Position numbers and translations under genes: made by a program. A stretch of DNA of 58,844 nt from an uncultured Bdellovibrionales bacterium. Lineage in GTDB: Bacteria; Patescibacteriota; Minisyncoccia; Moranbacterales; UBA1568. The notes beneath the pieces are model-generated. The model was not told the origin of the DNA and did not search any database. It was given only the letters and a program-made list of their open reading frames with translations. Of the stretch, positions 18,441 through 58,212 are shown piece by piece. The stretch lies in contig CAZTBI010000004.1 in assembly GCA_964612055.1 (NCBI GenBank), positions 1 through 58,844 of the forward strand, written 5' to 3'. Position 1 is the first letter of the stretch. The number at the start of each line of letters is the position of its first letter.

Positions 18441-18469
18441 TTGACTTTTCCTCTATTTTGTGCTAAAAT
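18441..18469 (+). promoter_or_regulatory. sigma70 promoter of orphan cassette 1
   Basis: TTGACT-N17-TAAAAT with TGn extension. Confidence 0.75.
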
Positions 18470-18545
18470 AGAACGTTACCAGTGCCTTAACATTTCAACC
18501 CCGTGTCGGATACCCGTCCGGCACACCACCACGAAAGGGTTCACT

Positions 18546-18758
18546 ATGGACCAAAAAATGAACCATCCAGCGAAATGCGCTTTCTACGGCGCCCTGGTCG
18601 TCCTCTCCTTCGGGCTTTTCGGCATCTCCCTGGTCTTCGTGAAGGATTTCACGGCCATCAACTTCGCCAATGTCTTCATGGTCGTTGGCTTGATGAGCTG
18701 TGCCATCTCCACCTTCATGATGATCATGCACGGCTACAAGGCCTTCGGCAGAAATTGA
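18546..18758 (+). CDS. Small 2-TM orphan protein (70 aa)
   Basis: GAAAGGG SD, strongly C-ending codons, two hydrophobic helices. Start MDQKMN. Confidence 0.65.
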   Translation: MDQKMNHPAKCAFYGALVVLSFGLFGISLVFVKDFTAINFANVFMVVGLMSCAISTFMMIMHGYKAFGRN

Positions 18759-18795
18759 CATACCCCCCAACCGCTCTCCGGAGCAAGGAGTTGTC

Positions 18796-18918
18796 ATGAC
18801 CACGGCAAATAATTTCCGAGGTGCTCTCCTGATATGGGTTGGTGGAATGACCGGCGGAAGTCGAACTCAATACCTATCCCGCCCCTGCGCACCGCGCCGG
18901 GGCTTCTTTTTATCCTGA
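18796..18918 (+). CDS. Possible 40-aa ORF or remnant
   Basis: CAAGGAG 5 nt before ATG (MTTANNFRGALLIWVGG...). It runs through the terminator, so doubtful. Confidence 0.25.
   Translation: MTTANNFRGALLIWVGGMTGGSRTQYLSRPCAPRRGFFLS
18881..18911 (+). terminator. Probable terminator of cassette 1
   Basis: GCCCC.GCGC-ACC-GCGC.GGGGC followed by TTCTTTTT. Confidence 0.55.
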
Positions 18919-18932
18919 GCCTGTCGAAGGAT
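18912..18932. repeat. REP-like palindromic unit
   Basis: ATCCTGAGCCTGTCGAAGGAT with inverted ends. Resembles from memory a CCTGAGCnnGTCGAAGG repeat family; not verified. Confidence 0.35.
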
Positions 18933-18963
18933 TCTTGCCCTAAGTTGATCGAAAGGCAGATAC

Positions 18964-21363
18964 TTATCCCACAACGATACTCACGATTTTGCCAGGAATG
19001 TAGATTACTTTGCGAATAGCTTTTCCGGCGATATGCGTTTGTACATTCCTATCAGCCAGCGCCTGCGACTTCACATCTTCTTCGCTCGTGCCAGTAGCAA
19101 TCGCGAGTACCGTACGCACTTTACCATTTACCTGAACAGCAACATTAACACTTTCAGCCACGATTTTTTTCGCATCGTACTTTGGCCATGGTGCGAGAAA
19201 AATGGATTTCTTTTCACCAAGCTGCGCCCACAATTCTTCCGCAATATGCGGAGCAAAAGAACTGATGAGTACTAACAATGTTTTGTAATGCTCTACAGAA
19301 AGCTTTTCAGCCTTTTCCATTTCATTCACGAGAATCATGAGTGAACTGATCGCAGTATTAAATTTGAATGCCTCAATATCTTCTGTTACTTTTTTGATCG
19401 TTTGATGAAGGAGGCTTTCAATTTTTTTCTCTGATGTCTTTGTTATTTTTCCGTGAAGCTTCCATACTTTCTCAAGAAAACGTCTCGTTCCTACCACACC
19501 GTCCGTATTCCAAGCAATCGACTGGGTAAATGGCCCCATGAACATCTCATAGAGACGGAAGGCGTCGGCTCCAAATTGGGCGACCACATCATCAGGATTG
19601 ATGACATTCCCCCAACGTTTGGACATTTTTCGTCCGTCGGAAGCCAGAATCAAGCCAAGAAACTCCAAACGAGTAAACGGTTCGGGCGTTGAAACTATCT
19701 TTTGATCATAGAGGAATTTATGCCAAAAACGAGCATAGATGAGGTGACGAGTAGCGTGATCACCACCGACATAGACATCGACGGGCATCATTTTCTTTTC
19801 CTTCTTCTTATCCACCAGAGCCTTCTTGTTGGCAGGGTCAATGAAACGAAGGTAATACCAAGAAGACCCGGCCCACTGCGGCATGGTATTGGTCTCACGC
19901 TTGGCCGCCCCTTTACACTTCGGACACTTCACATTGACCCATGAAGAAATAGTCGCGAGTGGTGATTCCCCTGTTCCTGCTGGCTGATAGGCCTTCACTT
20001 TTGGCAGTTTCACGGGCAAATCTTTTTCTGGCACTGGAACCACACCACATTTTTCACAGTGAATAATCGGGATCGGTTCTCCCCAATAACGTTGCCGAGA
20101 AAAAACCCAGTCGCGCATTTTATAATTCACCACTTTCTTTCCAATCTTTTCTTTTTTGAGCCACGCTGTCATCTTTTCCCGCGCCTCTTCTGATGTCAGG
20201 CCAGAAAATTCTTTCGAATCAACAAGTATTCCGTCGTCGGTAAAAGGCTTCCCATCAATGGAGGCCTCTTTTCCTCGTACTGATTCTCGAACCTCAAGCT
20301 GATATTTTTTTGCAAAGACACCATCACGCTCATCATGAGCAGGAACACCCATCACTGCCCCGGTACCATACGTAGCGAGTGCATAGTCAGCTATATACAC
20401 CGGGAGGCGCTCTCCAGTAAATGGATGGGCCACCTCAATACCCTCGAGACACACACCAGTCTTTTCCTTATTCAGTTCAGTGCGTTCCAGATCAGTTTTC
20501 TTTTTGGTAACAGCCAGATATTTTTTTACCTCCGAGAGATTTTTCATCTGGGATGCCAGTTTCTCCACCAGTGGATGTTCTGGTGCTACGACCACATACG
20601 TACAGCCGTAGATAGTATCCAGACGCGTTGTAAACACGCGCACCTCTTCTTCGGTGTCTACAACATAAAAAGTAACTTCAACACCTTCAGAACGACCAAT
20701 CCAGTTTTTCTGCGCCTCTTTGACCCCATCTGGCCAATCCAGTTTGGAGAGATCTCGAAGCATTTTGTCGGCATAGGCCGTGATCTTGAGTACCCACTGA
20801 CGCATCGGCCGTTTTTCTACTATACTGTCACAGCGTTCACAGCGACCTTGTTCCAGATCTTCATTGGCCAGTCCTGTCTGACACGATGGACACCAGTTAA
20901 TCGGATCAAATGATTGATAAGCAAGACCCTTGTGGAACATCTGTAAAAAGATCCACTGGGTCCATTTGTAGTACTCCGGGTCGGTGGTATTGATCTCGCG
21001 TTCCCAATCATAGGTAAAGCCAATTTTTTCTAATTGCTTCTTAAACGTAGCAATGTTCTTCTTCACCGCGACTTCTGGATGAACATTGTTCTTGATAGCG
21101 TATTGTTCTGCTGGTAACCCGAAAGCATCCCAACCCATAGGATGAAGTACCCCGTAGCCTTGCAGTTGTTTGAAGCGCGAGTAGACATCAGAAGCAATAT
21201 AGCCTTTGGGATGGCCAACATGAAGTCCTGTTCCCGAAGGGTACGGAAACATATCCAAAACATACTGCTTTTTTGGTCGTTTGTACTGGCGATACGTACC
21301 ATTGGTGTTCCAGTATTTCTGCCATTTTCCCTCAATTTTCTTCGGTTCGTAGGCCTTTTTCAT
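18964..21363 (-). CDS. leuS: Leucine-tRNA ligase
   Basis: MFPYPSG.GLHVGH, NWIGRSEG, RDWVFSRQRYWGEPIP, KMSKR. Confidence 0.98.
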   Translation of the reverse strand: MKKAYEPKKIEGKWQKYWNTNGTYRQYKRPKKQYVLDMFPYPSGTGLHVGHPKGYIASDVYSRFKQLQGYGVLHPMGWDAFGLPAEQYAIKNNVHPEVAVKKNIATFKKQLEKIGFTYDWEREINTTDPEYYKWTQWIFLQMFHKGLAYQSFDPINWCPSCQTGLANEDLEQGRCERCDSIVEKRPMRQWVLKITAYADKMLRDLSKLDWPDGVKEAQKNWIGRSEGVEVTFYVVDTEEEVRVFTTRLDTIYGCTYVVVAPEHPLVEKLASQMKNLSEVKKYLAVTKKKTDLERTELNKEKTGVCLEGIEVAHPFTGERLPVYIADYALATYGTGAVMGVPAHDERDGVFAKKYQLEVRESVRGKEASIDGKPFTDDGILVDSKEFSGLTSEEAREKMTAWLKKEKIGKKVVNYKMRDWVFSRQRYWGEPIPIIHCEKCGVVPVPEKDLPVKLPKVKAYQPAGTGESPLATISSWVNVKCPKCKGAAKRETNTMPQWAGSSWYYLRFIDPANKKALVDKKKEKKMMPVDVYVGGDHATRHLIYARFWHKFLYDQKIVSTPEPFTRLEFLGLILASDGRKMSKRWGNVINPDDVVAQFGADAFRLYEMFMGPFTQSIAWNTDGVVGTRRFLEKVWKLHGKITKTSEKKIESLLHQTIKKVTEDIEAFKFNTAISSLMILVNEMEKAEKLSVEHYKTLLVLISSFAPHIAEELWAQLGEKKSIFLAPWPKYDAKKIVAESVNVAVQVNGKVRTVLAIATGTSEEDVKSQALADRNVQTHIAGKAIRKVIYIPGKIVSIVVG

Positions 21364-21390
21364 GTCATTCTGATAGGTAATTGCTTCCTT

Positions 21391-21419
21391 ACTCTAGCGT
21401 ACTAGCGCCTTTTTTTCAA
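21391..21419 (-). promoter_or_regulatory. sigma70 promoter of leuS
   Basis: TTGAAA-N17-TAGAGT. Confidence 0.5.
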
Positions 21420-21436
21420 TCCCGCACCACTAGAAA

Positions 21437-21467
21437 AAGAAAAAACCGCAGGAGGACTTCCTGCGGT
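21437..21467 (-). terminator. Intrinsic terminator
   Basis: ACCGCAGGA...TCCTGCGGT followed by a U tract. Confidence 0.75.
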
Positions 21468-21486
21468 CTCTTTCAAAAAGGTGTCT

Positions 21487-22518
21487 TTAGCTCACTCTCC
21501 TTTTTACCACTCTCTTCTTTTCTTCGAAGCTACCAGGCCAGAATTTGACGATCATTTTCCGAGCCAACTTGTAGGCAATCCACAGAACCAAGCCGTAGAA
21601 GAAGAACATTGGCAATCCCAAGATGAGGAATATGACAATGCTCTCTAGGAAATGTCCGAGCATGCGGAGAAGCATCACAATCGACTCCTTAAACGTCTGC
21701 GTTGGACGGAATGTCTGATCTGAAGCAATTGTCGTGTCTTCGGTCACTGAAAGCGTGATCGACGCCATATCAGTCTGAGAATTCAAATAACGAAGCTGTC
21801 CTTCGAGAGATTCAATCTCACTCCGAACCATGGAAAGTTTATCGGTAATCTCGATAATATCACTGACCTTCACTGCCTTATCAAGCAGTGTTTGCAGAGC
21901 CGTTTCAGCTGCTTTCTCATTTGTGATGCGAGCCTGGATATCAATATACTGCTCAGTGACATCGGAACCTGACATGTTCTCAGAAAGCACTACGATTGCC
22001 ACTTCCTTGAAACGAGCAAACGCCTCTTCAAATCTGGATACCGGTACAGAAACCGTGATTGATCCTGTTTTCACTGAATCAGCCGACTGGCTGAAATAAC
22101 TATTGGTGATTGTTCCACCCATTTCTTCTGCTATGGATCGAACGGTATTAGTCGTCTCATCAGCATCCTTGACCTCCAGATTCATGCTGCCATTTTTGGC
22201 CATCTTGGTTCCGGCGGCCATCATCGGCGCTGCCTGACCCTCCAGTGCAACAGTGGTAGCGGGGCGAGTCCTCATACCGGTCGTAGCTCCATCAACCGCA
22301 GCGACACTCGGCATTTTCTTTTTATTCGTCGCAGCGACATTCATCGGATTCTTAGCCATCATGCCGGAAGAAACACTCACCGAAGAAACATCCGATCTGG
22401 AGTAACTCCGATGCTGCGAAAAAAACATTACTACAAAGAACACCAGCAAAAAGAAAACAAGGAATCCAACGATACCCACTACTAACGCCTTTCCAAACTT
22501 TTTTGAGACTGGCTGCAT
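21487..22518 (-). CDS. DUF4349-like membrane protein
   Basis: N- and C-terminal TM helices; ITVSVPV..F, DVTEQYIDIQARI, EIESLEGQLRYL. Confidence 0.75.
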   Translation of the reverse strand: MQPVSKKFGKALVVGIVGFLVFFLLVFFVVMFFSQHRSYSRSDVSSVSVSSGMMAKNPMNVAATNKKKMPSVAAVDGATTGMRTRPATTVALEGQAAPMMAAGTKMAKNGSMNLEVKDADETTNTVRSIAEEMGGTITNSYFSQSADSVKTGSITVSVPVSRFEEAFARFKEVAIVVLSENMSGSDVTEQYIDIQARITNEKAAETALQTLLDKAVKVSDIIEITDKLSMVRSEIESLEGQLRYLNSQTDMASITLSVTEDTTIASDQTFRPTQTFKESIVMLLRMLGHFLESIVIFLILGLPMFFFYGLVLWIAYKLARKMIVKFWPGSFEEKKRVVKRRVS

Positions 22519-22589
22519 AATTTTGTTTTAGAAAGTAAAGACGAGAATTATATATCCTCGTCTTTATTCTACTCCTCATTGTCGAAATA

Positions 22590-23039
22590 TCAAAGGCTGT
22601 TTCCGTTCGGAAGAGTCGTACCTCGTCGACTATGATGCTTGCGTGCTACTTTGATTCGGGCAAATTCTTTTTCTATCAGCGCTGCTGTACGAGCATACTC
22701 TTCATCATCCATACTGATTCGTTCTTTTTTCAAATCCTCGGCACGCTTCCTTGCTGCTTCCGCTCGAGCGAGATCGATTTCTTCAGCTCGCTCGGCGGTA
22801 TCAGCCAAGATAGAGAGCGTGCCACCGTGAAACTCTACGAAACCACCAGATGTCGCGAGGCTCGTTTCTTCACCATTCGCCTCTTTGCGGAGAATGATCT
22901 CCCCCGCCTGTAGCGCTCCAATATACGGCATGTGGTGAGACAAAATCGTTACTTCCCCACCTAAAACTGGAAGTGTCGCCTGGTACACCTCTTCTTCAAT
23001 CACGGTCCGTTCGGGAGTAACAACTTTAAATTTGATCAT
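22590..23039 (-). CDS. atpC: ATP synthase epsilon subunit
   Basis: VVTPER, GEVTILSHH, SGGFVE, ILADTAERAEEID. Confidence 0.95.
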   Translation of the reverse strand: MIKFKVVTPERTVIEEEVYQATLPVLGGEVTILSHHMPYIGALQAGEIILRKEANGEETSLATSGGFVEFHGGTLSILADTAERAEEIDLARAEAARKRAEDLKKERISMDDEEYARTAALIEKEFARIKVARKHHSRRGTTLPNGNSL

Positions 23040-23078
23040 AGACTTGAGAATATTTCTTGGCTGTCGACAACCAACCGA

Positions 23079-24479
<1,401 letters not shown>

Positions 24480-24515
24480 TTAAGGGAAAATCTTGATTAT
24501 TTATAGAAAATGCTC

Positions 24516-24544
24516 TTGACTTTTTACTATTCTCATGCTATTAT
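24516..24544 (+). promoter_or_regulatory. sigma70 promoter of orphan cassette 2 (inside atp operon, antisense)
   Basis: TTGACT-N17-TATTAT with TGn extension. Confidence 0.75.
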
Positions 24545-24593
24545 TTTTTGTTAAGTAGTTCATTTCACCTACCACCGACGAAAGGAGCTTGCC

Positions 24594-24872
24594 ATGCTCG
24601 GAGAAGAACCCGTTTTCCCCCATGACAGATCAGGCCAACAACACTTGGAGTACGCTCTCTGGAAATTCTGTGGCTTCTTGCTTCTCTGGACGGTAGCAAC
24701 CATCGCCACCGCCTACTTGGTGAGCAGGTCCCAAGCAGCTTTCTCAGTCGCGTTCTTCCAACAGGAAGCTTTCGTTTCCTTCTGCGCGCTCAGCGGAGCC
24801 ATTGCGAGCATCATTTGCCTCGTTTCGGCAGCAGAGCATGTCAAGTGGGTGTTCAAGAAAATGAGTCCGTAA
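24594..24872 (+). CDS. Small 2-TM orphan protein (92 aa)
   Basis: AAAGGAG SD 6 nt before ATG; two hydrophobic helices. Confidence 0.7.
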   Translation: MLGEEPVFPHDRSGQQHLEYALWKFCGFLLLWTVATIATAYLVSRSQAAFSVAFFQQEAFVSFCALSGAIASIICLVSAAEHVKWVFKKMSP

Positions 24873-24911
24873 ACTCCAAAGAAAAGGGCCGGGCTGAGAC
24901 ACCTTCGATGC

Positions 24912-24945
24912 AAGGCAGTTTGCATAACATGCGACTGCCTTTTTT
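24912..24945 (+). terminator. Terminator of cassette 2
   Basis: AAGGCAGT-TGCAT-AAC-ATGCG-ACTGCCTT followed by TTTT. Confidence 0.8.
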
Positions 24946-25010
24946 CTAATCTTTTTTCCAAACAACTCACGAAATTCAATTTCTTGAATTCCGAATTGTG
25001 GTTTGAAAAA

Positions 25011-25916
25011 TTACCTCTGCACTGCTGCCATGCCCGCCGACAACTCTGCGATCTCTTGGGTGATTTTTTGCTGACGAAGTTGGTTGTAGGCAAGCGTCAG
25101 ATCAGACACCATATCCTTGGCCGCATCAGTCGCATTGCGCATAGCCATCATCCGAGCTGATTCCTGTGAGGCATTACTTTCGAGGACTGCATGGTAGAGC
25201 TCCATCTCAAGCAAACGCGGAATCATCTGCCACAATACTTTCTTTGGTGTCGGTTCAATCAAATACTCGGCCTGGGACAGCTCCTCAGCTTCATTTGCAT
25301 TACCATGGCTACTCATCTCGTTCATAGCTTTCTTAGTGTCTTTGATAGCTACCGGAAGCAATGCCCGCACTTTTACCTCTTGTGATAGCATAGAAATATA
25401 GTCCGTGTAGACCATAACCACACGATCCACTCGTTTTGCTTCAAATTCTTCAATGATAAGTCGCGCGACTGGACGCATTCCCTCAGCAGTCGGCGTCACT
25501 AAAACATCAGGAAATGACGCCACAATCTCACCACCCATTCGTCGTACTGCATTCTCACCTTTTTTCCCCAGAGTGATAAAGATCCGTCCTCGCCCCTCAT
25601 CTTCTTTCAAGGTCTGACGCAGCTTCTTCACGATCTGGGCATTGAAAGCACCGCACAAACCACGATTACTCGTGATCACAACATAGAGTTCCTTCTTCAC
25701 AGGACGTTCGGTTAGGAGCACATGTTCCTCGCTCCCGACAGCGCGCTTCAACTGTTCGAGCAAAGCAATGGCACTCTTCGCATACGGACGAATGGCCAAC
25801 ACGGAAGACACGGCTTTACGCATTTTGACAGCCGAAATCATCTCCATGGCTCGGGTGATTTTTCCCGTACCCTTCACACCCTTAATGCGTCGTCTAATGT
25901 CTCGTGCCGATGCCAT
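25011..25916 (-). CDS. atpG: ATP synthase gamma subunit
   Basis: KITRAMEMISAVK, SNRGLCGAFN, ESARMMAM, RQQKITQEIAE. Confidence 0.98.
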   Translation of the reverse strand: MASARDIRRRIKGVKGTGKITRAMEMISAVKMRKAVSSVLAIRPYAKSAIALLEQLKRAVGSEEHVLLTERPVKKELYVVITSNRGLCGAFNAQIVKKLRQTLKEDEGRGRIFITLGKKGENAVRRMGGEIVASFPDVLVTPTAEGMRPVARLIIEEFEAKRVDRVVMVYTDYISMLSQEVKVRALLPVAIKDTKKAMNEMSSHGNANEAEELSQAEYLIEPTPKKVLWQMIPRLLEMELYHAVLESNASQESARMMAMRNATDAAKDMVSDLTLAYNQLRQQKITQEIAELSAGMAAVQR

Positions 25917-25919
25917 AGT

Positions 25920-27419
25920 TTAGGCTGCAAAACTCTTCTTAAATGTTTCTATGTGTTTCTTCAGTAACCCTTCCACATCTTCAGTCAGTGCCTTCTCCTT
26001 TACAATTGCTTCTCCCACTTCTTTACCCTCATTCTCGAGATAGGAGAGAAACTCACGTTCAAAACGGTTGATCTCAGAAGCGGCGATATCATCGACGTGA
26101 CCACGCGTCAGAGCATAAAGCACGGCTACTTCTTTTTCAACTGAAAGCGGTGCGTACTGTGGCTGCTTCAGCATTTCCACCGCGCGACGACCACGCTCAA
26201 TCAAAGAACGCGTTTTTTCATCAAGATCGGATCCGAACTGCGCAAAGGCTTCCAATTCTCGGAATTGAGCGAGGTCAAGACGGAGTGTTCCCGATACTTG
26301 CTTCATCGCCTTGATCTGGGCCGCCGAACCAACACGCGACACTGAGAGACCGACGTTGAGTGCCGGGCGGATGCCCTTGTAGAACAAATCTGTTTCCAAA
26401 TAAATCTGTCCATCGGTAATCGAGATGACGTTCGTCGGAATATAAGCAGAAACATCACCAGCCTGCGTTTCAATAATCGGGAGTGCTGTGAGTGATCCTC
26501 CCCCATTGTCTTTGTTCAACTTGGCACTCCGTTCCAATAAACGAGAGTGGACATAGAACACGTCTCCCGGATAAGCTTCGCGTCCTGGCGGCCGACGGAG
26601 AATAAGCGAGATCTGACGATAGGCGACTGCGTGTTTCGAAAGATCATCATACACAACCAAGACATCCTTGCCCTGATCCATGAAGTATTCTCCCAAAGCG
26701 CAGCCGGCGTACGGCGCAATAAAGGACAGCGCTGAAGGATCAGAAGCACCGGCGACGACCACGGTGGTATATTCCATAGCCCCACTCTTGGTCAGTTCAG
26801 CCACGATACGAGCCACTTTTGATTCCTTCTGTCCGATGGCGACGTAGATACAAATGACGCCCTGTCCTTTCTGGTTGATGATAGTATCGATCGCGATGGC
26901 GGTCTTTCCGGTTTGACGATCACCGATGATCAGTTCGCGCTGACCACGACCAATCGGAATCAAAGCATCAATCGCCTTGATACCAGTCTGGAGTGGTTGA
27001 TTGACTGACTGACGAGTGATGACGCCAGGAGCAATTTTTTCTACTGGATAATATGCTTTCGCTTCGATATCTCCCTTGCCGTCAATTGGCAGTCCAAGTG
27101 GTGACAGAACACGGCCGATGACACCCTCGCCTACTGGCACAGAAAGGATCTTTCCCGTACTTTTGGCGGTTGCGCCTTCACCAAGCTCGCCCGTTTCACC
27201 GAGCAGCATCACTCCCGCTTCCCCTTCCTCGAGGTTGAGTGCTACTCCCAGTGTCCCATTTTCAAACTCCACCATTTCTCCCGCCATAACCTCGGAAAGT
27301 CCGGCGACACGCGCCACACCATCTCCCACTTCCAGTACCGTTCCCACGGCCTCTTTTTTCGGCTCATGATGAAACTCGGAAATGTGCTTCTTTAGTTCTT
27401 GGATTAATGGGTTGCTCAT
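25920..27419 (-). CDS. atpA: ATP synthase alpha subunit
   Basis: [29 protein letters not shown]. Start trimmed to MSNPLIQ. Confidence 0.99.
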
Positions 27420-27434
27420 AGAAATGGTCATTAC

Positions 27435-27836
27435 TTAGGACTTACGGAGCGCTTGTTTCAAGGCTTTGGCGCGAGTAGCGAGCGTGGCATCGAAGAGCGC
27501 TTCTCGCGTACGAAGGAGAACACCACCGATGACACTCACATCTGTTTGGTATATCAAATCAATCTTCTTCTGCGGAAACGCTTTCTCCGCCACTTCCACC
27601 AAAAGAGTCTTAGTCTCAGGAGAAGCCACGTGCGCCGTGACCGCTGTCACAGAAAGCTCACCGCTTTTTTCTTGAGCCCGCTCTTCCAGACGGCGTACAA
27701 TCGAAGCAAGCTTCTTTGTCTCGCCGCGCCGTTTCAAAAAGCCGAGAAAATTTTTGACAACTTCTTTGACTTCGACGCCTGAGGCATGAGAAAGCTCTTC
27801 AAGTACTTCGGCATATTGTGAGACGGTTGGACGCAT
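27435..27836 (-). CDS. atpH: ATP synthase delta subunit (short)
   Basis: Operon position; QYAEVL, NFLGFL, VIGGVLLR, DATL. Confidence 0.8.
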   Translation of the reverse strand: MRPTVSQYAEVLEELSHASGVEVKEVVKNFLGFLKRRGETKKLASIVRRLEERAQEKSGELSVTAVTAHVASPETKTLLVEVAEKAFPQKKIDLIYQTDVSVIGGVLLRTREALFDATLATRAKALKQALRKS

Positions 27837-28813: not shown

Positions 28814-29566
28814 CTAGTGTTCCGGCGCAAGCGTTGCCATTTTCAGGAAGACCAGGGTCAACATAGCAAAAACCACCGCCTGGATAAACCCAACGAACAC
28901 TTCGAGAAACATGAACGGCAGTGGCAGGAAATACGGCACCAGGTGGAGCATGACCGTAAGGAGCACTTCACCAGCAAAGACGTTTCCAAACAAACGAAAG
29001 GTGAAGGAAATAATTTTCCCTACTTCACTGACGAGCTCTAAGATACCTACTGCTGTACCGATACCGTAAGGCTTATGAAACGGGCTGATGAAAAACTTTT
29101 TGCCATACTTCACGATACCGAGCGCCGCGATACCGGTAAACTGCACCGTGATCACCGTAATGAGCGAAAGTGCCAAGGTAAAATTAAGGTCAGCCGAAGT
29201 ACTGCGAAGAAAGGGAATGATTGTATGATGACCATTGTGTTCACCGTAAATACCAACCGTCCCGAGTCCCGGCAGAAGCCCGGCCCAGTTGGAAATAAGC
29301 ACAAAGAGAAAGATGGTGGCGATGAGCGGGAAAAACTGACGCGCCTGTTTCTTGTCCTGAGTGACACTTTCTACCAATTCCAAAAGTGCTTCAAAAATAA
29401 TTTCCAAAACATTCTGCACACCCCGAGGAACCAGGGTCAAGTTCTTGGTAGCGCGCGTCGTGAGAAAAATAAGAAAGGCGCTGACGATCACGCCAATCAA
29501 AAGCGCATTGGTCACCGGAAGAAACCCAAGGCTAAACAATTTTTCTGCGGCAATAGAGATTTCCAC
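28814..29566 (-). CDS. atpB: ATP synthase subunit a (GTG start)
   Basis: SNWAGLLPG, RSTSADLN, FRLFGNVFAGE, QAVVFAML. Confidence 0.97.
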   Translation of the reverse strand: MEISIAAEKLFSLGFLPVTNALLIGVIVSAFLIFLTTRATKNLTLVPRGVQNVLEIIFEALLELVESVTQDKKQARQFFPLIATIFLFVLISNWAGLLPGLGTVGIYGEHNGHHTIIPFLRSTSADLNFTLALSLITVITVQFTGIAALGIVKYGKKFFISPFHKPYGIGTAVGILELVSEVGKIISFTFRLFGNVFAGEVLLTVMLHLVPYFLPLPFMFLEVFVGFIQAVVFAMLTLVFLKMATLAPEH

Positions 29567-29686
29567 CCCGTTAGAGATAATGATTAAAAACTACGGCACC
29601 CTTCCCTTTCACTCCAATACGTCAGAATCATTTGATTGAATATATCCACCAAAATCTCTAACGGGGTCCATGTCGTTTTAAGTATA
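29565..29686 (-). promoter_or_regulatory. atp operon leader: -10 TATACT, 20-aa uORF (29609-29671) and 14-bp helix covering the atpB start
   Basis: 29654-29667 is the exact reverse complement of 29565-29578. Confidence 0.65.
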
Positions 29687-33062: not shown

Positions 33063-33083
33063 GGTATTTTTAGTTCATTAGTA

Positions 33084-33112
33084 TTGACAAAATCAATTTT
33101 ATGGTATATAAT
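33084..33112 (+). promoter_or_regulatory. Perfect-consensus sigma70 promoter of orphan cassette 3
   Basis: TTGACA-N17-TATAAT. Confidence 0.85.
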
Positions 33113-33168
33113 GTACTGAACAGTGCCTCGTGCCTGTTTTGTTCCCCAACAACCTGAAGAGGTGTCTG

Positions 33169-33501
33169 ATGGAAAAGAAGCTGAATCCGCTCGAGCTGTT
33201 CCTGATGTTCCTGCTCTTTCGCACGATGTGTGCGACGCTTGCGCTCAAGACCTGGTTCAAGAAGACGTTTTCTTCGGCCGCTCCGGCCGGCGAAACGACC
33301 AGCGCGTTCCGGGAGACCTACCCCCACACCCAGAGGCCAGAGATCACGCGGAGTGACATCTGTCTCGTAGCAGGATTCCTGCTCTTCGTGGCAGCGTTGG
33401 TCTTCACTCTCCGATCAATCGCCTGTCTCCACGGCGACGACGTGAGTTGCTCCTTTGCCAGCGCCTGGCTGGGAGAGGTAGTGATGAACCTGATCCGATG
33501 A
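33169..33501 (+). CDS. Orphan membrane protein (110 aa)
   Basis: GAAGAGG SD before MEKKLN; two hydrophobic segments; C/G-ending codons. Confidence 0.65.
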   Translation: MEKKLNPLELFLMFLLFRTMCATLALKTWFKKTFSSAAPAGETTSAFRETYPHTQRPEITRSDICLVAGFLLFVAALVFTLRSIACLHGDDVSCSFASAWLGEVVMNLIR

Positions 33502-33505
33502 ACCC

Positions 33506-33538
33506 GAGCCTGATGACGTCAACGACGTTGTCAGGCTC
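33506..33538 (+). terminator. 15-bp hairpin closing cassette 3
   Basis: GAGCCTGATGACGTC-AAC-GACGTTGTCAGGCTC; no immediate U tract. Confidence 0.55.
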
Positions 33539-33625
33539 AAAACATTTTAGCCTCTTTTTGTATTACTCGCCCCGTTACTTACCCTAAAGCCATTATATCT
33601 AATGGTGACTAAGAATGGTAGCCTC

Positions 33626-38058: not shown

Positions 38059-38065
38059 AGGACTC

Positions 38066-38094
38066 TTGACAAAAAGGCTTATTTCGTGTATACT
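38066..38094 (+). promoter_or_regulatory. sigma70 promoter of orphan cassette 4
   Basis: TTGACA-N17-TATACT. Confidence 0.8.
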
Positions 38095-38213
38095 GGGGAG
38101 GTTATTCACAAGTTCAGTGTACAGGCAAATAGAGCATTGCTCAAGCCTTTCCACGACTTGTCTGGTCCTTTGTTCAACCCCGGGGAACACAATAACCCCA
38201 TTTTGGAGGCTCC

Positions 38214-38456
38214 ATGAAAACCCCCAATCCCATTGTGCTTGGCATGCTGGCTATCCTGCTCATGCTCGCCTGGCTCATTTGGCGCAACTGGCGCAGACAA
38301 GCAGCCAGTCACTTCATGCCATGCCGGGCGTGCAAACTGGACACCAAGTCAACCTTCGATGAGGTCATCGAGGGTGGTGCGACCACTCGATTCCACTACT
38401 ACTGCCAGTGTGGCCATGCATGGCAAGTGGACACGCCGCGTACCCAAGGGTACTGA
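38214..38456 (+). CDS. TM-anchored zinc-ribbon-like orphan (80 aa)
   Basis: GGAGG SD; N-terminal TM, RNWRR, then CRAC-x23-CQCGHAW. Confidence 0.7.
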   Translation: MKTPNPIVLGMLAILLMLAWLIWRNWRRQAASHFMPCRACKLDTKSTFDEVIEGGATTRFHYYCQCGHAWQVDTPRTQGY

Positions 38457-38475
38457 GAACAGCGCCTGAAGGACC

Positions 38476-38510
38476 GCGCGACGTAGAACCCCTACGCTCG
38501 CGCTTTTTTT
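38476..38510 (+). terminator. Terminator of cassette 4
   Basis: GCGCGA-CGTAG-AACC-CTACG-C-TCGCGC followed by a T run. Confidence 0.8.
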
Positions 38511-38513
38511 ATT

Positions 38514-50336: not shown

Positions 50337-50382
50337 AGTGAAAACTTTCTCCCTATCATATCACAATCACCAAAATCACAGA

Positions 50383-51603: not shown

Positions 51604-51637
51604 ATTTAAAAGGTTAAGAATAAATCTCTATAAAGAG

Positions 51638-51666: not shown

Positions 51667-51668
51667 AG

Positions 51669-51702
51669 AAAAAAGCGGCTGGGATCAATGATCCAAACCG
51701 CT
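51669..51702 (-). terminator. Terminator after SLT-like gene
   Basis: AGCGG..GGATC-ATT-GATCC..CCGCT followed by a T run. Confidence 0.7.
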
Positions 51703-51708
51703 CGGTTG

Positions 51709-53106: not shown

Positions 53107-53166
53107 GGACGTCTCCTTGATGTTGTCCAGTGGATGCCGCAAACATACCACGCTCCGGAGAAAATG

Positions 53167-53195
53167 AAAAGAAGTCATTTGTTATGACTTCTTTT
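53167..53195 (-). terminator. Terminator hairpin
   Basis: AAAAGAAGTCAT-N5-ATGACTTCTTTT. Confidence 0.75.
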
Positions 53196-53765: not shown

Positions 53766-53769
53766 ATTG

Positions 53770-53925
53770 CTAGTGGATCAAGTGATAAATATCTACTCCG
53801 GCCGCTACGACAAAAAGGAGTGACGTGGAGCCAACAATCTTGAACGCAAAAAACATGAGCTCTTCATCCCAACCGCGTTCCTTTTTGTACTTTTTTCTAT
53901 ACTGTTTCGGTAACCGAGAAATCAT
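53770..53925 (-). CDS. 51-aa single-TM protein below the ORF-track cutoff
   Basis: MISRLPKQYRKKYKKERGWDEELMFFAFKIVGSTSLLFVVAAGVDIYHLIH; stop lies 4 nt before the next start. Confidence 0.55.
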   Translation of the reverse strand: MISRLPKQYRKKYKKERGWDEELMFFAFKIVGSTSLLFVVAAGVDIYHLIH

Positions 53926-53948
53926 TTTGAATACCTTTGTTTTGCTGT

Positions 53949-55541
53949 TTACATTTTTTCCGGAGCACTGATCCCCATGAGCGAAAGCGCCTCCGCAAGC
54001 ACTACCTTCGTAGCCCGAACCAACTGTAACCGCGCCTGGGTCAACGGAATATTTTCCGTATCAATCACTCGACACGCATCATAGAACGAATGGAGCTTGT
54101 CGGAAAGCTTCATGGCATACTGCGGGAGCTTGTGGACAGAAAATTCACTGGCCACCGTATCGATCAACTCGGGGAAAAACATCAGCTCACGCATGAGAGC
54201 TCGTTCTTTCTCGTGCGTCAGAAGTGTGAGGTCGCCTGTCGTTACCGTCATTCCCTCTTCCTCTGCTTTGCGCAAGACACTACACAAACGAGCATGAGCA
54301 TACTGGACATAAAAGACCGGATTTTTCTGCGAGCGCTCTTCCGCTAACCCAAGATCAAAGTTCATGTGTGTTTCAGGCGCATACATGAGGAAAAAGAAAC
54401 GTGCCACGTCATGCCCCACTGTTTCGATCAGCTTATCAATCTCGATGACATTGCCAGCACGCTTGCTCATACGCACCTCCACACCGTCCTTTACGACCTT
54501 TACCATTTGCACGATCAAAAAGCGGACATCACCAGAAAATCCCAACATCTGCGCCGCTGCCTTGAAGCGGTTGATATAGCCATGATGATCAGCGCCCCAG
54601 GTCTCGATGATACGGAGAGAACCGCGCTCCATCTTGTTCAGAATATATCCGCAATCCGAAGCAAAATACGTGAGCGTTCCATCCTGCTTAACAAGCACTC
54701 GATCCTTATCATCGCCATACTCAGTCGTCTTGAGCCACAACGCCCCTTCCGATTCATAGGTCGGGCCTTTTTCTTTCAACAGATTGATGGCTTTTTCACG
54801 ATAGCCTTTTTCCACAATCTCCTTCCGTTCAGAAGTCCACACATCAAAATGAATCTGCATCTTTTCTTCAACAGATTTCTTGATCATCTCTTCGAGTACA
54901 TACTCCGCCGACGCTCGGCCCACTGCCTCGACTCCGCCGATGCCAGCAAATTTCTCAGCCAGTTCATCGATATATTCCCCTCCATACACCGCTTCCTCAT
55001 CCTTCAGAACACTATGACCCAGTTTCAAGACTTGCTCCCCGGCATCATTCACATAGTACTCGTCTACGACCTCATAGCCTACCTTTCGTAAAACATTAGC
55101 CAAAGAATCGGCATAGAACCCACCACGACCATTTGCAACCGTAAGCGGCCCTGTCGGGTTGGCAGAGATGAATTCATTGTTTATCTTAATCCCCTGACCT
55201 GCAACACTCGATCCGTACAATTTTCCCTCCTTCAAAACTTTCTCCAAAACAGAGGCGATGTCTTTCTGGCTCAGAAAGAAATTAATATGGCCAGGCCGCA
55301 CTACTTCGACTTTCTCAAAGGTATCGGAAAGAAGTTTTAATCGGAGGAGCTCGGCTAGTTCCATTGGATTCTGCTTCACTTCTTTAGCAATAACCAAAGC
55401 AATATTGGTGGTATATTCCCCAAATTGTTCATCTTTGGGCCGCTCCACAGTCACTTGGGGTACCAAAAAATCAGGCAACTTTCGTTCCTGTTGGAGTATC
55501 TGTAAAGCTTCTTCAATTTTCTTCTGCAGCATTTGCTTCAT
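53949..55541 (-). CDS. argS: Arginine-tRNA ligase
   Basis: FGEYTTNIA, EFISANPTGP, WGADHHGY, MSKRAG, YVQYAHAR. Start trimmed to MKQMLQ. Confidence 0.97.
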   Translation of the reverse strand: MKQMLQKKIEEALQILQQERKLPDFLVPQVTVERPKDEQFGEYTTNIALVIAKEVKQNPMELAELLRLKLLSDTFEKVEVVRPGHINFFLSQKDIASVLEKVLKEGKLYGSSVAGQGIKINNEFISANPTGPLTVANGRGGFYADSLANVLRKVGYEVVDEYYVNDAGEQVLKLGHSVLKDEEAVYGGEYIDELAEKFAGIGGVEAVGRASAEYVLEEMIKKSVEEKMQIHFDVWTSERKEIVEKGYREKAINLLKEKGPTYESEGALWLKTTEYGDDKDRVLVKQDGTLTYFASDCGYILNKMERGSLRIIETWGADHHGYINRFKAAAQMLGFSGDVRFLIVQMVKVVKDGVEVRMSKRAGNVIEIDKLIETVGHDVARFFFLMYAPETHMNFDLGLAEERSQKNPVFYVQYAHARLCSVLRKAEEEGMTVTTGDLTLLTHEKERALMRELMFFPELIDTVASEFSVHKLPQYAMKLSDKLHSFYDACRVIDTENIPLTQARLQLVRATKVVLAEALSLMGISAPEKM

Positions 55542-55603
55542 GCTCTGTATCGTACCGGAAAAAAGCCAGAAAGGAAAGATTCGAGCGTTATAATTATAAA
55601 AAG

Positions 55604-55639
55604 AAAAACTGCCGGCACCCTCTTTGGGGTACGCGGCAG
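55604..55639 (-). repeat. 36-nt terminator-like repeat, copy 1
   Basis: Plus strand AAAAACTGCCGGCACCCTCTTTGGGGTACGCGGCAG; 33/36 identical to copies 2 and 3. Confidence 0.9.
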
Positions 55640-55656
55640 TGTAGATTCCCTCGAGC

Positions 55657-56325
55657 TCAGCGCCGAAGACAGGCCGGCGACAAGCTCGGCCCCCAAGACG
55701 GCTCTCGATTTGAGCCATACTCGCCACAGTCGATAAGCTCCTGCGTGACTGGCTGATACATAACCCAACGTTGAATGGACCCTTTGTCGCCTTGAAAGGT
55801 AGCTCGTACGATGAACCATCCGTCATGGTATTCGCGAATCTCGCGCACCGCGGCATCATGACCTTCTCCGAGATTCGTTCGAATGTATCGAAGCGATTCA
55901 ATCTCTCGGTCATCGAGAAACACTCTGGAACTACCCGACCAATCCTGTGCAGGCGTGTACTCTGTCACGATGGTGATGATTCCATAAGAGGAACCTCCCC
56001 ACATCAGTGAAACGCCAGGCGTGTAATCACCATTCGGATTGCCATGTACCTTCTGCAAGATTACTCCTCTGAAGGTCACCACTGCATCCCATCTCTTGTT
56101 CAGAGGGTCATAGATGCTCCTCATCTGGACATCCGCAGTTGACGCTTCATCAGGCATGGTATATCCATAGTCGCCCAGAATAACTGGCAATTTATCAAAG
56201 GCCATTTTGACCTCTTCGGCCGTTGAAAGTGGCACGGAATTTTCATCCCCGCCGCCGCAGGCAGCGAGGAGGCTGAGGCACAGCATCGTCAGGGCGATAC
56301 GGAAAGCAGAATAAATCGTGGTCAT
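55657..56325 (-). CDS. Orphan lipoprotein
   Basis: CAAGGAG SD; signal peptide with lipobox LAA-C followed by GGG. Confidence 0.7.
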   Translation of the reverse strand: MTTIYSAFRIALTMLCLSLLAACGGGDENSVPLSTAEEVKMAFDKLPVILGDYGYTMPDEASTADVQMRSIYDPLNKRWDAVVTFRGVILQKVHGNPNGDYTPGVSLMWGGSSYGIITIVTEYTPAQDWSGSSRVFLDDREIESLRYIRTNLGEGHDAAVREIREYHDGWFIVRATFQGDKGSIQRWVMYQPVTQELIDCGEYGSNREPSWGPSLSPACLRR

Positions 56326-56418
56326 GGTGTCTCTCCTTGAGACTTGTTGAAGAACCGGGGTTTCTGTCTCCCCTACAGGAGAAGATTCTCCCCGTAAAGT
56401 GACTTTCTTTTATACAAT

Positions 56419-56445
56419 AAAACCGAACTTTTGTAAAGAGTTCGG
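56419..56445 (-). terminator. Terminator after trhO
   Basis: CCGAACT-N9-AGTTCGG followed by TTTT. Confidence 0.65.
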
Positions 56446-56455
56446 CTGAAATAAT

Positions 56456-57496
56456 TTATGCGGCTATTTTTTCTTTGAAGGCCTCTTGGTTTTTCGGAAG
56501 TACTTTGCCTTTGCGACGTTTGATTTGCTCGGCTAGAGGAAGTGCCACGATAGCCTGACACTGCGCACCACAACAGCCAGAAAATTTTTCTTTACAAGAA
56601 GCACACTGAATAAAAAGAAGATTGCACTCGACATTAGCGCAGTTCGTATAGTCATCGCACATACTGTCACACTGGTGACACTTCGCGAGAACATCGTCCG
56701 TGATCCGTTCACCTAGACGCTCATCGAAGACAAAGTTCTTACCTTTGAATTTTGATGGTAATCCCTCACGTTCAATCTGATGTTTATAGTCAATGATGCC
56801 GCCATGAAGCTGATAGACATTCTTGAAGCCCTGATGCTTCAGATAAGCACTAGCTTTTTCGCAACGAATACCGCCCGTACAATAGAGGAGCACGGGCTTG
56901 TCTTCTTTCCCTTTCAGCTCTTCTTTCACCATTGGGAGTTCTTCGCGGAAAGTATAAGCATTCAATGCCACAGCGTTTTCAAAACGCCCGATCATTGATT
57001 CGTAGTTGTTGCGCATATCCACTACGACTGCTTCTGGTTGTTCCAACATTTCATTAAATTCCCGGGCGGTGAGATGAGTACCGACATTCGTCACATCATA
57101 ATCTTCAGGTGTCAAACCATCCGCCACGATCTGTTTCTTGACCTTGATCGTCAGCTTCCAAAAGGCTTCGTTGTTTTGTTCTACTCCTACTTTAAACGGT
57201 ACATCGGTAAATTCTTTACGCTTATAGAGAAGTTCTTGAAATTTTTCAAAATGTGGTTCTGGGACACTCATCTGAGCATTGATCCCTTCTTTGGCCACAT
57301 AGATTCTTCCCAAGACTCCAAGTTTCTGCCACTCGGTGAAGAGTTCATTACGTAAAGCTACTGGGTCAGCAATAATGACATAGCGATAGAAAGAAATCAC
57401 CCGCCGTGAAAACGACTCGGTAGCTACACGCTTCTGAGCCTCTTCTTTGGAGATATGATTTCGCAGTTGGTGCGGGATATTGATCATACGATTCAT
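56456..57496 (-). CDS. trhO: Rhodanese-domain tRNA U34 hydroxylase (YceA/UPF0176)
   Basis: SFYRY, GRIYVAKEGINAQ, DMRN.YE..IGRF, YCTGGIRCEKAS, GKNFVFDER. Confidence 0.92.
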   Translation of the reverse strand: MNRMINIPHQLRNHISKEEAQKRVATESFSRRVISFYRYVIIADPVALRNELFTEWQKLGVLGRIYVAKEGINAQMSVPEPHFEKFQELLYKRKEFTDVPFKVGVEQNNEAFWKLTIKVKKQIVADGLTPEDYDVTNVGTHLTAREFNEMLEQPEAVVVDMRNNYESMIGRFENAVALNAYTFREELPMVKEELKGKEDKPVLLYCTGGIRCEKASAYLKHQGFKNVYQLHGGIIDYKHQIEREGLPSKFKGKNFVFDERLGERITDDVLAKCHQCDSMCDDYTNCANVECNLLFIQCASCKEKFSGCCGAQCQAIVALPLAEQIKRRKGKVLPKNQEAFKEKIAA

Positions 57497-57534
57497 CCTA
57501 TCGGAAACCTGCTAAAAAGTGAAGTGGAGATAAA

Positions 57535-57570
57535 AAAAACTGCCGGTGCCCTCTTTGGGGTACTCGGCAG
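57535..57570 (-). repeat. 36-nt terminator-like repeat, copy 2
   Basis: AAAAACTGCCGGTGCCCTCTTTGGGGTACTCGGCAG. Confidence 0.9.
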
Positions 57571-57578
57571 CGATCGCG

Positions 57579-57830
57579 TTATCCGCCATTACGGACAATG
57601 CTCAGAGCCATGATGTATCGTTCCAGATCGGGAGGTGTCAGCGGACGCTTCTCCTTGGTCGACATGTTGGTGAGAATCCACCGGCGTTTCTGGGCTTCCC
57701 AGGTCACCCGATAGATGGGGGCCGGCGGGCTCTGCAGCGCATCCTCCGCGAAAGCCAAAGCGATGTAACGGATCTTGGCTCGCAGATCGTCCGTATCCGG
57801 AATACTCTCTCTCAGCTTCTTCAGTTCCAT
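57579..57830 (-). CDS. Orphan protein (83 aa)
   Basis: CAAGGAG SD, own promoter, ends 8 nt before repeat copy 2. Confidence 0.65.
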   Translation of the reverse strand: MELKKLRESIPDTDDLRAKIRYIALAFAEDALQSPPAPIYRVTWEAQKRRWILTNMSTKEKRPLTPPDLERYIMALSIVRNGG

Positions 57831-57880
57831 CTCATCACTCCTTGGGAAACAACCTGAAAACCGAAAAATTCATCTGGCCA

Positions 57881-57908
57881 ATCCTATCATCTCTATCCGA
57901 AAAATCAA
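57881..57908 (-). promoter_or_regulatory. sigma70 promoter of the 83-aa ORF
   Basis: TTGATT-N16-TAGGAT with TGn. Confidence 0.5.
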
Positions 57909-57934
57909 GTCAGCGCTCTGCAGGTTACGGAAAT

Positions 57935-57970
57935 AAAAACTGCCGGTGCCCTCTTTGGGGTACTCGGCAG
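57935..57970 (-). repeat. 36-nt terminator-like repeat, copy 3
   Basis: Identical to copy 2, exactly 400 bp away. Confidence 0.9.
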
Positions 57971-57993
57971 CTTAATGAATGGGAGCGACTGGC

Positions 57994-58140
57994 TCAGCCG
58001 CCGGAGATGGACATGATGGCGTCCCGGAGGAACCAGACCAGGGTCACGGCGATGCCACCGTTGACGAACTTGTCCCAACCGTCGGCCTCCATGATGATGA
58101 GGGTGGCATTGCGGTAGGTACGAAACTTCTGAGCAGGCAC
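57994..58140 (-). CDS. Orphan micro-protein (48 aa, GTG start)
   Basis: CAAGGAG-N6-GTG; MPAQKFRTYRNATLIIMEADGWDKFVNGGIAVTLVWFLRDAIMSISGG; C-ending codons. Confidence 0.65.
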   Translation of the reverse strand: MPAQKFRTYRNATLIIMEADGWDKFVNGGIAVTLVWFLRDAIMSISGG

Positions 58141-58183
58141 AGCTTTCTCCTTGGTAATGTCACGAACAATCTCGCAACACCTT

Positions 58184-58212
58184 ATTATACTCCTTTTTCG
58201 ACCAGAAGTCAA
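58184..58212 (-). promoter_or_regulatory. sigma70 promoter of the 48-aa ORF
   Basis: TTGACT-N17-TATAAT. Confidence 0.8.

Follow-up and report, generated by a model that had tools for sequence, protein, structure and literature searches.

Minimal mobile elements (MMEs) were reportedly described in Neisseria by Saunders and Snyder in 2002 and by Snyder et al. in 2007. One source on MMEs (PMC3082526) presents them as whole-gene cassettes that differ among strains, lie between conserved genes and recombine through their flanks, without a recombinase or terminal repeats. Phage morons, such as gene 15 of HK97, possess their own promoter and terminator, reside within operons and deviate in composition (PMC3594210). 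In the hyperplastic regions of T4-type phages, PeSL (promoter-early stem-loop) cassettes place a strong sigma-70-like promoter and a stem-loop on the flanks of small orphan genes (PMC2839356, PMC4122927). Enrichment of G and C at third codon positions (GC3) has been associated with recombination in bacteria, and GC-biased gene conversion is the hypothesis put forward for it (PMC4450053). In this study, we focused on the contig CAZTBI010000004.1, analyzed over its entire 58.8 kb (hereafter the window), in which small open reading frames (ORFs) with their own predicted promoters and terminators occupy intergenic slots between conserved core genes.

The window belongs to a genome of 0.94 Mb in 7 contigs. 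The close homologues of its TrhO and AtpG proteins are labelled Candidatus Moranbacteria or Moraniibacteriota, and the genome is therefore assigned to the ultra-small bacteria of the Candidate Phyla Radiation (CPR, Patescibacteria). The minus strand holds nearly all of the long genes of the window, among which NCBIfam identifies glmS, leuS, atpD, metG, rsmI, glyQS, tgt, nrdD, trhO and smpB. We name the units u1 to u6, together with a seventh, the lipoprotein unit, and the slots A to F. Four of the slots lie between or inside co-directional housekeeping operons (leuS-glmS, atpG-atpD, rsmI-metG and tgt-glyQS), and the other two flank trhO. The genome under study (G000) was compared with 12 congeners (G001 to G012) over five stretches and with further relatives, given as L-numbered contigs, several of which come from metagenomes and some of which are 94-98% identical to G000. 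The same core genes border all six slots in most of the 12 congeners and of the metagenome contigs that cover them.

The explanation that we favor, with a probability of roughly 0.6, is that these are fixed slots whose insulated small-gene units are swapped through homologous recombination of the core genes on either side. The core gene order contains fixed intergenic slots, each able to hold a predicted insulated transcription unit made of a consensus sigma-70 promoter, a conserved structured leader, a Shine-Dalgarno sequence, a small accessory ORF, mostly for a membrane or exported protein, and an intrinsic terminator. Units or alleles would be gained, lost and swapped via homologous recombination with DNA from other Moranbacteria, and the conserved core genes, together with the conserved frame of promoter, leader and terminator, would serve as homology arms. 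The G/C-ending codon style is a lasting property of the cargo genes and not the trace of a foreign donor.

Slot contents among relatives

Slot B (24498..25005, plus strand) lies within the atp operon, between the atpG stop and the atpD start. It holds u2, which consists of the promoter TTGACT-17-TATTAT (24516-24544), an ORF of 92 amino acids with two transmembrane (TM) segments (24594-24872, plus strand, GC3 0.65) and a terminator hairpin (24912-24946); weak minus-strand promoter-like sites face atpD at 24568-24526. In three relatives (L048, which is GCA_018060865.1, L049 and L050), the 508 bp of the slot are replaced by 6 bp. On the atpD side, G000 and L048 show no mismatch in 24000-24397 and then 7 in the last 70 bp before the u2 junction; past the junction, towards atpG, the first 20 bp contain 3 mismatches and no more follow until 25533. 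Slot B is also empty (30-47 bp) in six congeners. The distant congeners G004 and G007 have a promoter at a distance from atpD of 49 and 42 nt, respectively (compared with 49 nt in G000), together with a two-TM ORF of 87-92 amino acids, and the promoter and left flank of G004 are homologous to those of u2, though u2 is absent from the closest relatives of G000. Slot B of G004 and G005 (L011 ~6400-7000; L010 ~700-1150) also contains a minus-strand gene of 108-148 amino acids with the motif FAFTE.GVAMLSSVLKS, which we take to be an ORF6N/antirepressor-like domain; in G004 this gene adjoins the u2-type unit.

Slot F (55582..56459, minus strand), between the trhO stop and the 5' untranslated region of argS, behaves in the same manner. 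The lipoprotein unit in this slot comprises a hairpin behind trhO that bears TTTACA-17-TATAAA (~56446-56395), a leader, an ORF of 222 amino acids with the lipobox LAAC (56325-55657, minus strand, GC3 0.56) and a 36-nt hairpin terminator (55639-55604). L043, a relative of ~94-95% identity, has 12 bp in place of these 878 bp. Beside the junction, trhO contains a tract of ~440 bp with 85-90% identity to L043, beyond which the two sequences are ~100% identical. Slot F is empty in G002, G004, G005, G008, G010 and L046/47. In L044, the same trhO terminator/promoter, the leader, the signal peptide (86% at the nucleotide level) and a related terminator enclose an unrelated mature domain. Both u2 and the lipoprotein unit are accompanied by a hairpin directly behind the upstream core gene (24993-24970 on the minus strand behind atpG; ~56446-56420 behind trhO), and such hairpins, together with the weak promoter-like sites that face atpD, would make insertion within an operon tolerable.

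Replacement of the coding body inside a retained frame was also observed in slot A (18349..18963, plus strand), between the leuS stop and the glmS promoter. Here u1 comprises the promoter TTGACT-17-TAAAAT (18441-18469), a leader with a conserved hairpin (18470-18545), an ORF of 70 amino acids with two TM segments (18546-18758, plus strand, GC3 0.80), a truncated second ORF that starts at 18796 and a terminator (~18880-18911). The relative L048 keeps the promoter, the leader hairpin, the 3' end and the terminator of u1 and contains an ORF of 64 amino acids (GC3 0.70) that cannot be aligned with that of u1, while the surroundings are 97.5% (the stretch of leuS, atpC and atpD from ~19200) and ~94% (glmS) identical. 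The slot measures only 28-100 bp in G001, G002 and G004. In G009 it contains a 1.38-kb version with three ORFs, whose promoter, leader, inter-ORF region and terminator are homologous to u1, and the second ORF of G000 (40 codons) is a truncated remnant of this three-ORF version. Over 15400-27500 of the window, blocks of 99-100% identity between G000 and L048 alternate with blocks of 85-92% (for example 17300-18100 and 26200-27200), and this mosaic indicates frequent homologous recombination within the population.

Two further observations concern slot A. In G005, G007 and G010, it contains, in place of a small inverted unit, two ordinary co-directional genes, one for a nucleotidyltransferase-like protein of 214-217 amino acids and one for an HAD-like protein of ~150 amino acids, which may represent an older state of the slot. 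In addition, we noticed a miniature element of ~100-110 bp with the inverted ends CCCCGTTAGAG(A/T). Two full copies are present in G000, one at 29566-29666 of the window, where it forms a long helix in the atpB leader, and the other at C2:106023-106123 (L055 123-223). At two places, slot A of L048 and slot E of L046, the element lies precisely within the -35 box of a cassette promoter and is flanked by a direct repeat of TTGAC, so that the -35 box is regenerated; slot A of G000 has no such element. By duplicating TTGAC in -35 boxes, the element may help to remodel the frames.

Constrained frames and shared hairpins

In slots C and D, the frames are orthologous across the genus. Slot C (33063..33625, plus strand), between the metG start and the rsmI stop, holds u3 with the promoter TTGACA-17-TATAAT (33084-33112), a leader hairpin, an ORF of 110 amino acids with two TM segments (33169-33501, plus strand, GC3 0.77) and a terminator (~33506-33560) whose T-run is interrupted. 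G001, G002, G009 and G012 possess orthologues of the promoter, leader and terminator. The promoter keeps the same offset in G001, G009 and G012; in G002, whose spacer contains an 11-nt insertion, it stands farther out by 11 nt. A conserved leader hairpin follows the promoter, and the homologous terminator shows compensatory changes in its stem. The relatives L051 and L053 have the same promoter, leader and ORF start. The u3-type ORFs range from 51 to 110 amino acids, are alignable at the N-terminus only and have GC3 values of 0.63-0.83. In L051 (1582-1995) and L053 (1488-1901), the annotated gene of 137 amino acids is in the wrong frame, and the real gene is a u3 orthologue of 109 amino acids with a GC3 of 0.83. 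Gene callers are misled at such places because small genes rich in GC3 open several frames.

Slot D (38059..38513, plus strand), between the glyQS start and the tgt stop, holds u4. Its promoter TTGACA-17-TATACT (38066-38094) is followed by a leader of 119 nt (38095-38213), an ORF of 80 amino acids with one TM segment and a zinc-ribbon-like CxxC...CxC pattern (38214-38456, plus strand, GC3 0.69) and a terminator (38476-38511). Seven congeners have a promoter at this offset, directly against the start of glyQS, and four species share the leader motif ACAAGTTCAGTGTACAGGCAAA. As cargo, G000, G001 (two copies) and G002 have a membrane-anchored zinc-ribbon-like protein, and G009, G007 and G010 have a different product; the slot is empty (61 bp) in G006. 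Compared with L040, which is one of three independent Logan assemblies (L040-L042) of a 94%-identical relative, the shared first 76 nt of the leader are all identical (76/76), the terminator differs over 57 nt by one mismatch and an indel of a single base, and the ORF is 86% identical. The synonymous divergence (dS) of the ORF is 0.44 and the nonsynonymous divergence (dN) 0.09, which gives a dN/dS ratio (omega) of 0.21; dS is 0.07-0.25 in tgt, recO and the gene between them. The omega below 1, the raised dS and the near-identical leader and terminator indicate that the u4 ORF is coding and fast-evolving, and that its frame is strongly constrained. An AF2 model of u4 built with no alignment shows a helix at residues 6-33 and three strands at low confidence (pLDDT 69).

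Two side observations were made at this slot. All of L040-L042 break at one base in the u4 leader (their position 1 is window position 38119), which hints at strain heterogeneity or at a repeat just upstream, in the region of the promoter and the glyQS start. The GlyQS protein itself (36661-38058) is 79-93% identical in G001, G002, G004, G005, G007, G009 and G010 and only 53-63% identical in G003, G006, G011 and G012, although the AtpD of the latter (89-92%) is no less similar than that of most others. This suggests that glyQS may have been replaced by a divergent copy in some lineages.

The best of the alternatives is that the units are fast-evolving small genes of purely vertical descent, that the empty sites are deletions and that no exchange between lineages takes place. 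The metG and glyQS frames are orthologous across the genus, the omega values of 0.2-0.5 fit weak purifying selection, and no mobility gene lies nearby. However, we consider this alternative unlikely. It does not account for the absence of u2 from three near-identical assemblies when a promoter stands at nearly the same offset in two of the most distant congeners compared. It would also have to explain why the core genes diverge mainly over their last 20-440 bp at the junctions, within DNA that is otherwise 99-100% identical, why slot F of L044 has an unrelated mature domain between its 86%-identical leader and signal peptide and a related terminator, and why the slot A ORF of L048 is unalignable in surroundings of 97.5% and ~94% identity.

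Several points nevertheless weigh against exchange through the flanks. In the relatives sampled, u3 and u4 seem to have been inherited vertically, and direct support for exchange is confined to slots A, B and F, with partial support at slot E. The empty sites of near relatives might be accounted for by deletion without any exchange, and the short divergent tracts (20-440 bp) could reflect a local relaxation of constraint. No donor allele was found for any unit, and the expression of the units is read from sequence signals only. The presence of ComEC and DprA makes DNA uptake possible and agrees with exchange, but both are common in bacteria and are no proof of competence. The GC3 of the lipoprotein cargo is only 0.56, so that the codon style does not strictly accompany the slots.

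The preliminary description of this DNA had seen no integrase or att site and had proposed a capture or insertion route that delivers ready-to-express mini-genes. In the stretches that we examined, the units likewise had neither a recombinase or integrase gene nor an att-type repeat next to them. It had looked to the alignment of close relatives for empty sites and exact boundaries, and these are now available for u2 and the lipoprotein unit, the two whose junctions were mapped to the base. No convincing target duplication was found at these two junctions, of which that of u2 shows only an A/T-rich similarity of 6-7 nt (GAAAAT), and neither there nor in the searches for copies of leaders and 3' regions did we find an end motif shared by the units. 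Short divergent tracts (20-440 bp) in the core flanks adjoin both of the mapped junctions, inside DNA that is otherwise near-identical. The turnover of ready-made units is thus borne out by the presence or absence of u2 and the lipoprotein unit between flanks of 94-100% identity, but the slots are fixed and a dedicated capture route is not indicated. Vertical conservation at the same sites, which had been named as evidence to the contrary, is indeed found for u3 and u4 in the metG and glyQS frames.

Slot E holds u5 and u6. The unit u6 adjoins smpB (57935..58212, minus strand), with the promoter TTGACT-17-TATAAT (58212-58184), an ORF of 49 amino acids from GTG with a hydrophobic C-terminal half (58143-57994, minus strand, GC3 0.82) and a hairpin terminator (57971-57935). 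The unit u5 (57497..57934, minus strand) has the weak promoter TTGATT-16-TAGGAT (57908-57881), an ORF for a soluble protein of 83 amino acids (57830-57579, minus strand, GC3 0.68) and a hairpin terminator (57571-57535). Both units are present in G000 and L043, and u6 alone is present in L046/47. The slot contains a gene of 374 amino acids in L044 and nothing in G001, G009, G007 and G010. In G002 it contains a 3.8-kb array, the first gene of which encodes a lipoprotein of 392 amino acids behind a consensus promoter at the place of the u6 promoter. An orthologue of u5 is present in L043 (dS 0.14, omega 0.47) and a distant one at the same position in G002; u5 is absent from G001, G009, G004, G007, G010 and L046/47. 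The unit u6 is conserved in L043 and L046/47 (GC3 0.73-0.83). Its dS between G000 and L046 is 0.18, compared with 3.2 for trhO. A recent separate transfer of u6 was considered and dropped because the whole smpB-u6 block is ~90% identical. Downstream of smpB, the last 50 bases of the contig (58795-58844) are 92-100% identical in many congeners, far above the surrounding coding DNA. Possibly a structural RNA gene starts here and is truncated by the end of the contig; no Rfam family matched these bases at the gathering threshold.

It is conceivable that recombination between repeated promoter and stem-loop motifs, as in PeSL cassettes, shuffles the units and that the core flank is not the substrate. 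One family of 36-nt terminator hairpins is common to u5, u6 and the lipoprotein gene, with 3 copies within 2.4 kb, and it recurs in slot E of G002. On either side of u5 stands one of two identical 37-nt hairpins in direct orientation, with a promoter-like site or a gene behind each, and L046/47 possess u6 without u5. However, each frame of u1-u4 occurs only once in the genome, and the sequence in which the u2 and lipoprotein-unit junctions are located is unique and not a repeat. Such shuffling therefore explains slot E at most, and as a general account we find it improbable.

Unit architecture and codon usage

All six units listed in the preliminary description were found, and the lipoprotein unit belongs with them as a seventh. 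Each of the six follows the layout of a promoter, a leader of ~40-120 nt, a Shine-Dalgarno sequence, a small ORF and a hairpin with a T-run, and the closing hairpins that it had noted are real, with the interruption in u3 as mentioned. Near-consensus sigma-70 promoters precede five of the units as it had stated but not u5. The promoters of u1-u4 match the consensus at 10-12 of 12 positions and are the top-scoring promoter-like sites on the plus strand of 18000-57800. The genome contains 40 instances of the strict pattern TTGACN-17-TAWWMT, as against ~3 in Markov shuffles, and this identifies the pattern as the true promoter type of this organism. The neighbors glmS, atpD, metG and glyQS were confirmed, as were the distances of the -35 box from the starts of glyQS (7 nt) and metG (21 nt). 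The idea of a dispersed family holds for architecture and not for sequence: in genome-wide searches with the leaders and 3' regions of u1-u6, no second copies were found other than those of the 36-nt hairpin, so that u1-u6 share an architecture and are not one sequence family. At the gathering threshold, Rfam recognized no family in the unit leaders. A crude genome-wide scan, corresponding to the pattern count that had been suggested, found 45 units of a promoter, a Shine-Dalgarno-led ORF of 35-260 amino acids and a terminator, with a median GC3 of 0.61. The units of the window therefore belong to a genome-wide class. The GC3 was at least 0.62 in 22 of the 45, and several of them encode lipoproteins or signal-peptide proteins with GC3 values of 0.73-0.86.

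Two further genes had also been assigned to the pattern. For the lipoprotein gene this was correct, as its terminator belongs to the hairpin family of u5 and u6. The supposed SLT-like gene, on the other hand, is the long ORF of 654 codons beside it (53949-55913, minus strand), which is argS, the gene for arginyl-tRNA synthetase, with a false 5' extension; no SLT domain was detected in the ORFs tested. Relatives are alignable with this ORF only from about residue 113, the probable start is near 55540, and the overlap with the lipoprotein gene is confined to the false extension.

The products had been described as mostly small membrane or secreted proteins. Hydropathy profiles agree for u1-u3 (two membrane segments each) and u4 (one) and, with a weaker hydrophobic stretch, for u6, but u5 has no such segment. 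Scans of the unit products against Pfam, PADLOC and PHROGs gave only sub-threshold matches driven by composition. Among six other units with consensus promoters elsewhere in the genome, Pfam recognized one Bax1-I family protein and left five as orphans. For u4, one close relative was found among 5.8 billion proteins. For u5, no relative was found among 1.84 billion representative proteins beyond itself and its orthologues in the lineage. Neither u4 nor u5 has a homologue outside the lineage in these collections; the other cargo ORFs were not searched in large protein collections. The products are probably strain-variable envelope proteins, and roles in host interaction or phage defence are a matter of speculation.

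Short hydrophobic proteins behind strong promoters and structured leaders might instead be small membrane toxins of a toxin-antitoxin or abortive-infection type (type I-like), that is, selfish or defensive modules, and 3 of the 6 ORFs are more stably folded than their permuted versions. However, no antisense promoter of comparable quality is present inside the units, and PADLOC gave no significant match. Moreover, most of the products have 70-110 amino acids with two helices or a zinc-ribbon tail, and that of u5 is soluble. We regard this possibility as very unlikely.

The small ORFs are rich in codons that end in C or G, as the preliminary description had reported. The GC3 of u1-u6 is 0.65-0.82, compared with a genome mean of 0.505 (standard deviation 0.078, 95th percentile 0.64), and the pooled value is 0.734, compared with 0.522 expected for the same amino acids under native codon choice. 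The shift was observed in 17 of 18 amino acids and was strongest in Phe, Tyr, Ile, Asp and Thr towards C. At the other codon positions, the units resemble the genome: GC1 is 0.42-0.57, at or under the native 0.56, GC2 is also native-like, and the amino-acid make-up is of the membrane-protein type, unlike that of a high-GC organism. The orthologues have similarly high GC3, with values of 0.78, 0.69, 0.75, 0.63 and 0.83 in the metG slot, 0.65-0.84 in the glyQS slot, 0.67 and 0.70 in u1-type ORFs and 0.73 and 0.83 in u6-type ORFs. The synonymous sites of the neighboring trhO are saturated between some of the compared genomes (dS ~3.2). The codon style is therefore maintained and is not the decaying signature of an import.

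A foreign high-GC donor was examined as the source of this codon style and rejected on account of the native-like GC1, GC2 and amino acids and by the retention of GC3 in orthologues. Recent import of whole units from such a donor, for example a host bacterium, through an unrecognised capture system would agree with a GC3 far above that of the genome and with self-contained units that are in part absent from close relatives. However, apart from the composition and from orthologue GC3 of 0.63-0.84 in spite of saturated synonymous divergence, the promoters are of the genome's own consensus type, u5 is an orphan and u4 nearly so in the protein collections, no recombinase gene lies beside the units, and neither an end motif nor a target duplication was seen at the two mapped junctions. 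These results make such import highly improbable. Ordinary translational selection in very highly expressed genes, to which the strong promoters and the median GC3 of 0.61 behind consensus promoters might point, is largely refuted and barely credible because EF-Tu (0.50), EF-G (0.54), RpsL (0.59), RpoB/RpoC (0.53-0.54), DnaK (0.55) and the ribosomal protein cluster (GC3 0.43-0.58, C at third positions 0.15-0.28) have ordinary GC3, so that the bias of the units is not linked to expression.

The high GC3 may stem from GC-biased gene conversion at recombination hot spots or from selection that acts on the mRNA. The former would tie high GC3 to raised dS. With regard to the latter, folding of the six ORFs was compared with permutations of synonymous codons and gave z-scores of -3.2, -0.4, -1.3, -2.2, -2.3 and +0.9. 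Three of the six were thus more stable. This mixed result gives selection on mRNA folding partial support and is suggestive, not decisive.

The genomes of CPR bacteria are very small and highly syntenic, and these organisms rely on other cells; variation of their cell surface is thus a central question. The slots would represent a concrete mechanism for the turnover of accessory genes without mobile-element machinery, with one frame in the middle of the ATP synthase operon. A wider proposal is possible, and we make it only tentatively, with the odds somewhat against it: Moranbacteria-like CPR bacteria may possess fixed expression slots throughout the genome, between and even within essential operons, in which small envelope ORFs are continually replaced from a lineage-wide pool by homologous recombination, and the codon style may be a by-product of this process or be selected at the mRNA level. 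The population as a whole would then possess a library of variable surface and membrane proteins, in organisms whose genomes are otherwise minimal and highly syntenic. The third-position enrichment, explained neither by expression nor by foreign origin, bears on the debate between gene conversion and selection. Methods based on composition would wrongly flag such ORFs as recent horizontal transfers.

Comparison with known systems

In a non-exhaustive search of the literature on CPR small proteins and CPR codon usage, we found no description of such slots. Integron cassettes are not matched, since the present units have their own promoters, show no shared end motif in the copy searches of leaders and 3' regions or at the two mapped junctions, are dispersed and have no integrase among their neighbors. 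Type I toxin-antitoxin modules probably do not fit either: hydrophobic products are present, but no strong antisense promoter was found inside the units. Recombination-associated GC3 enrichment is similar in that high GC3 occurs at loci with signs of frequent recombination. However, the enrichment observed here is extreme and limited to ORFs of a few hundred bases, and the process is a candidate cause only.

In the PeSL cassettes as in the present units, strong promoters and stem-loops surround small orphan genes, insertion, deletion and replacement are seen in close relatives, and the hairpins of u5 and u6 add to the likeness. PeSL is one motif repeated across a phage genome, with recombination between its copies, whereas most of the frames described here are single-copy and the junctions are located in unique core sequence. 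The units resemble morons in being independent predicted transcription units of deviant composition that are inserted within operons and have a patchy distribution among relatives. In contrast to morons, they are chromosomal, have core genes as neighbors and show no significant PHROG match and no prophage context. Moreover, their shift in composition is confined to third codon positions and is long-lasting, whereas that of morons is taken as a sign of recent transfer.

The slots themselves are most like MMEs, as each is bounded by two conserved genes and contains different cargo or none between strains. Slots A, B, E and F differ in content or are empty, even among relatives of 94-98% identity, and slots C and D contain divergent or different cargo, with one empty case (G006). 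Unlike MMEs, the slots retain the regulatory frame around a changing coding body, their cargo is a single very small ORF with lasting G/C-ending codons, and some of them are located within essential operons and oriented against these. In addition, the host is an uncultured CPR bacterium for which transformation is not known. It is most likely that these loci are MME-like slots with moron-like units, in which the unusual features are a conserved frame around hypervariable cargo and a codon style that has long been kept.

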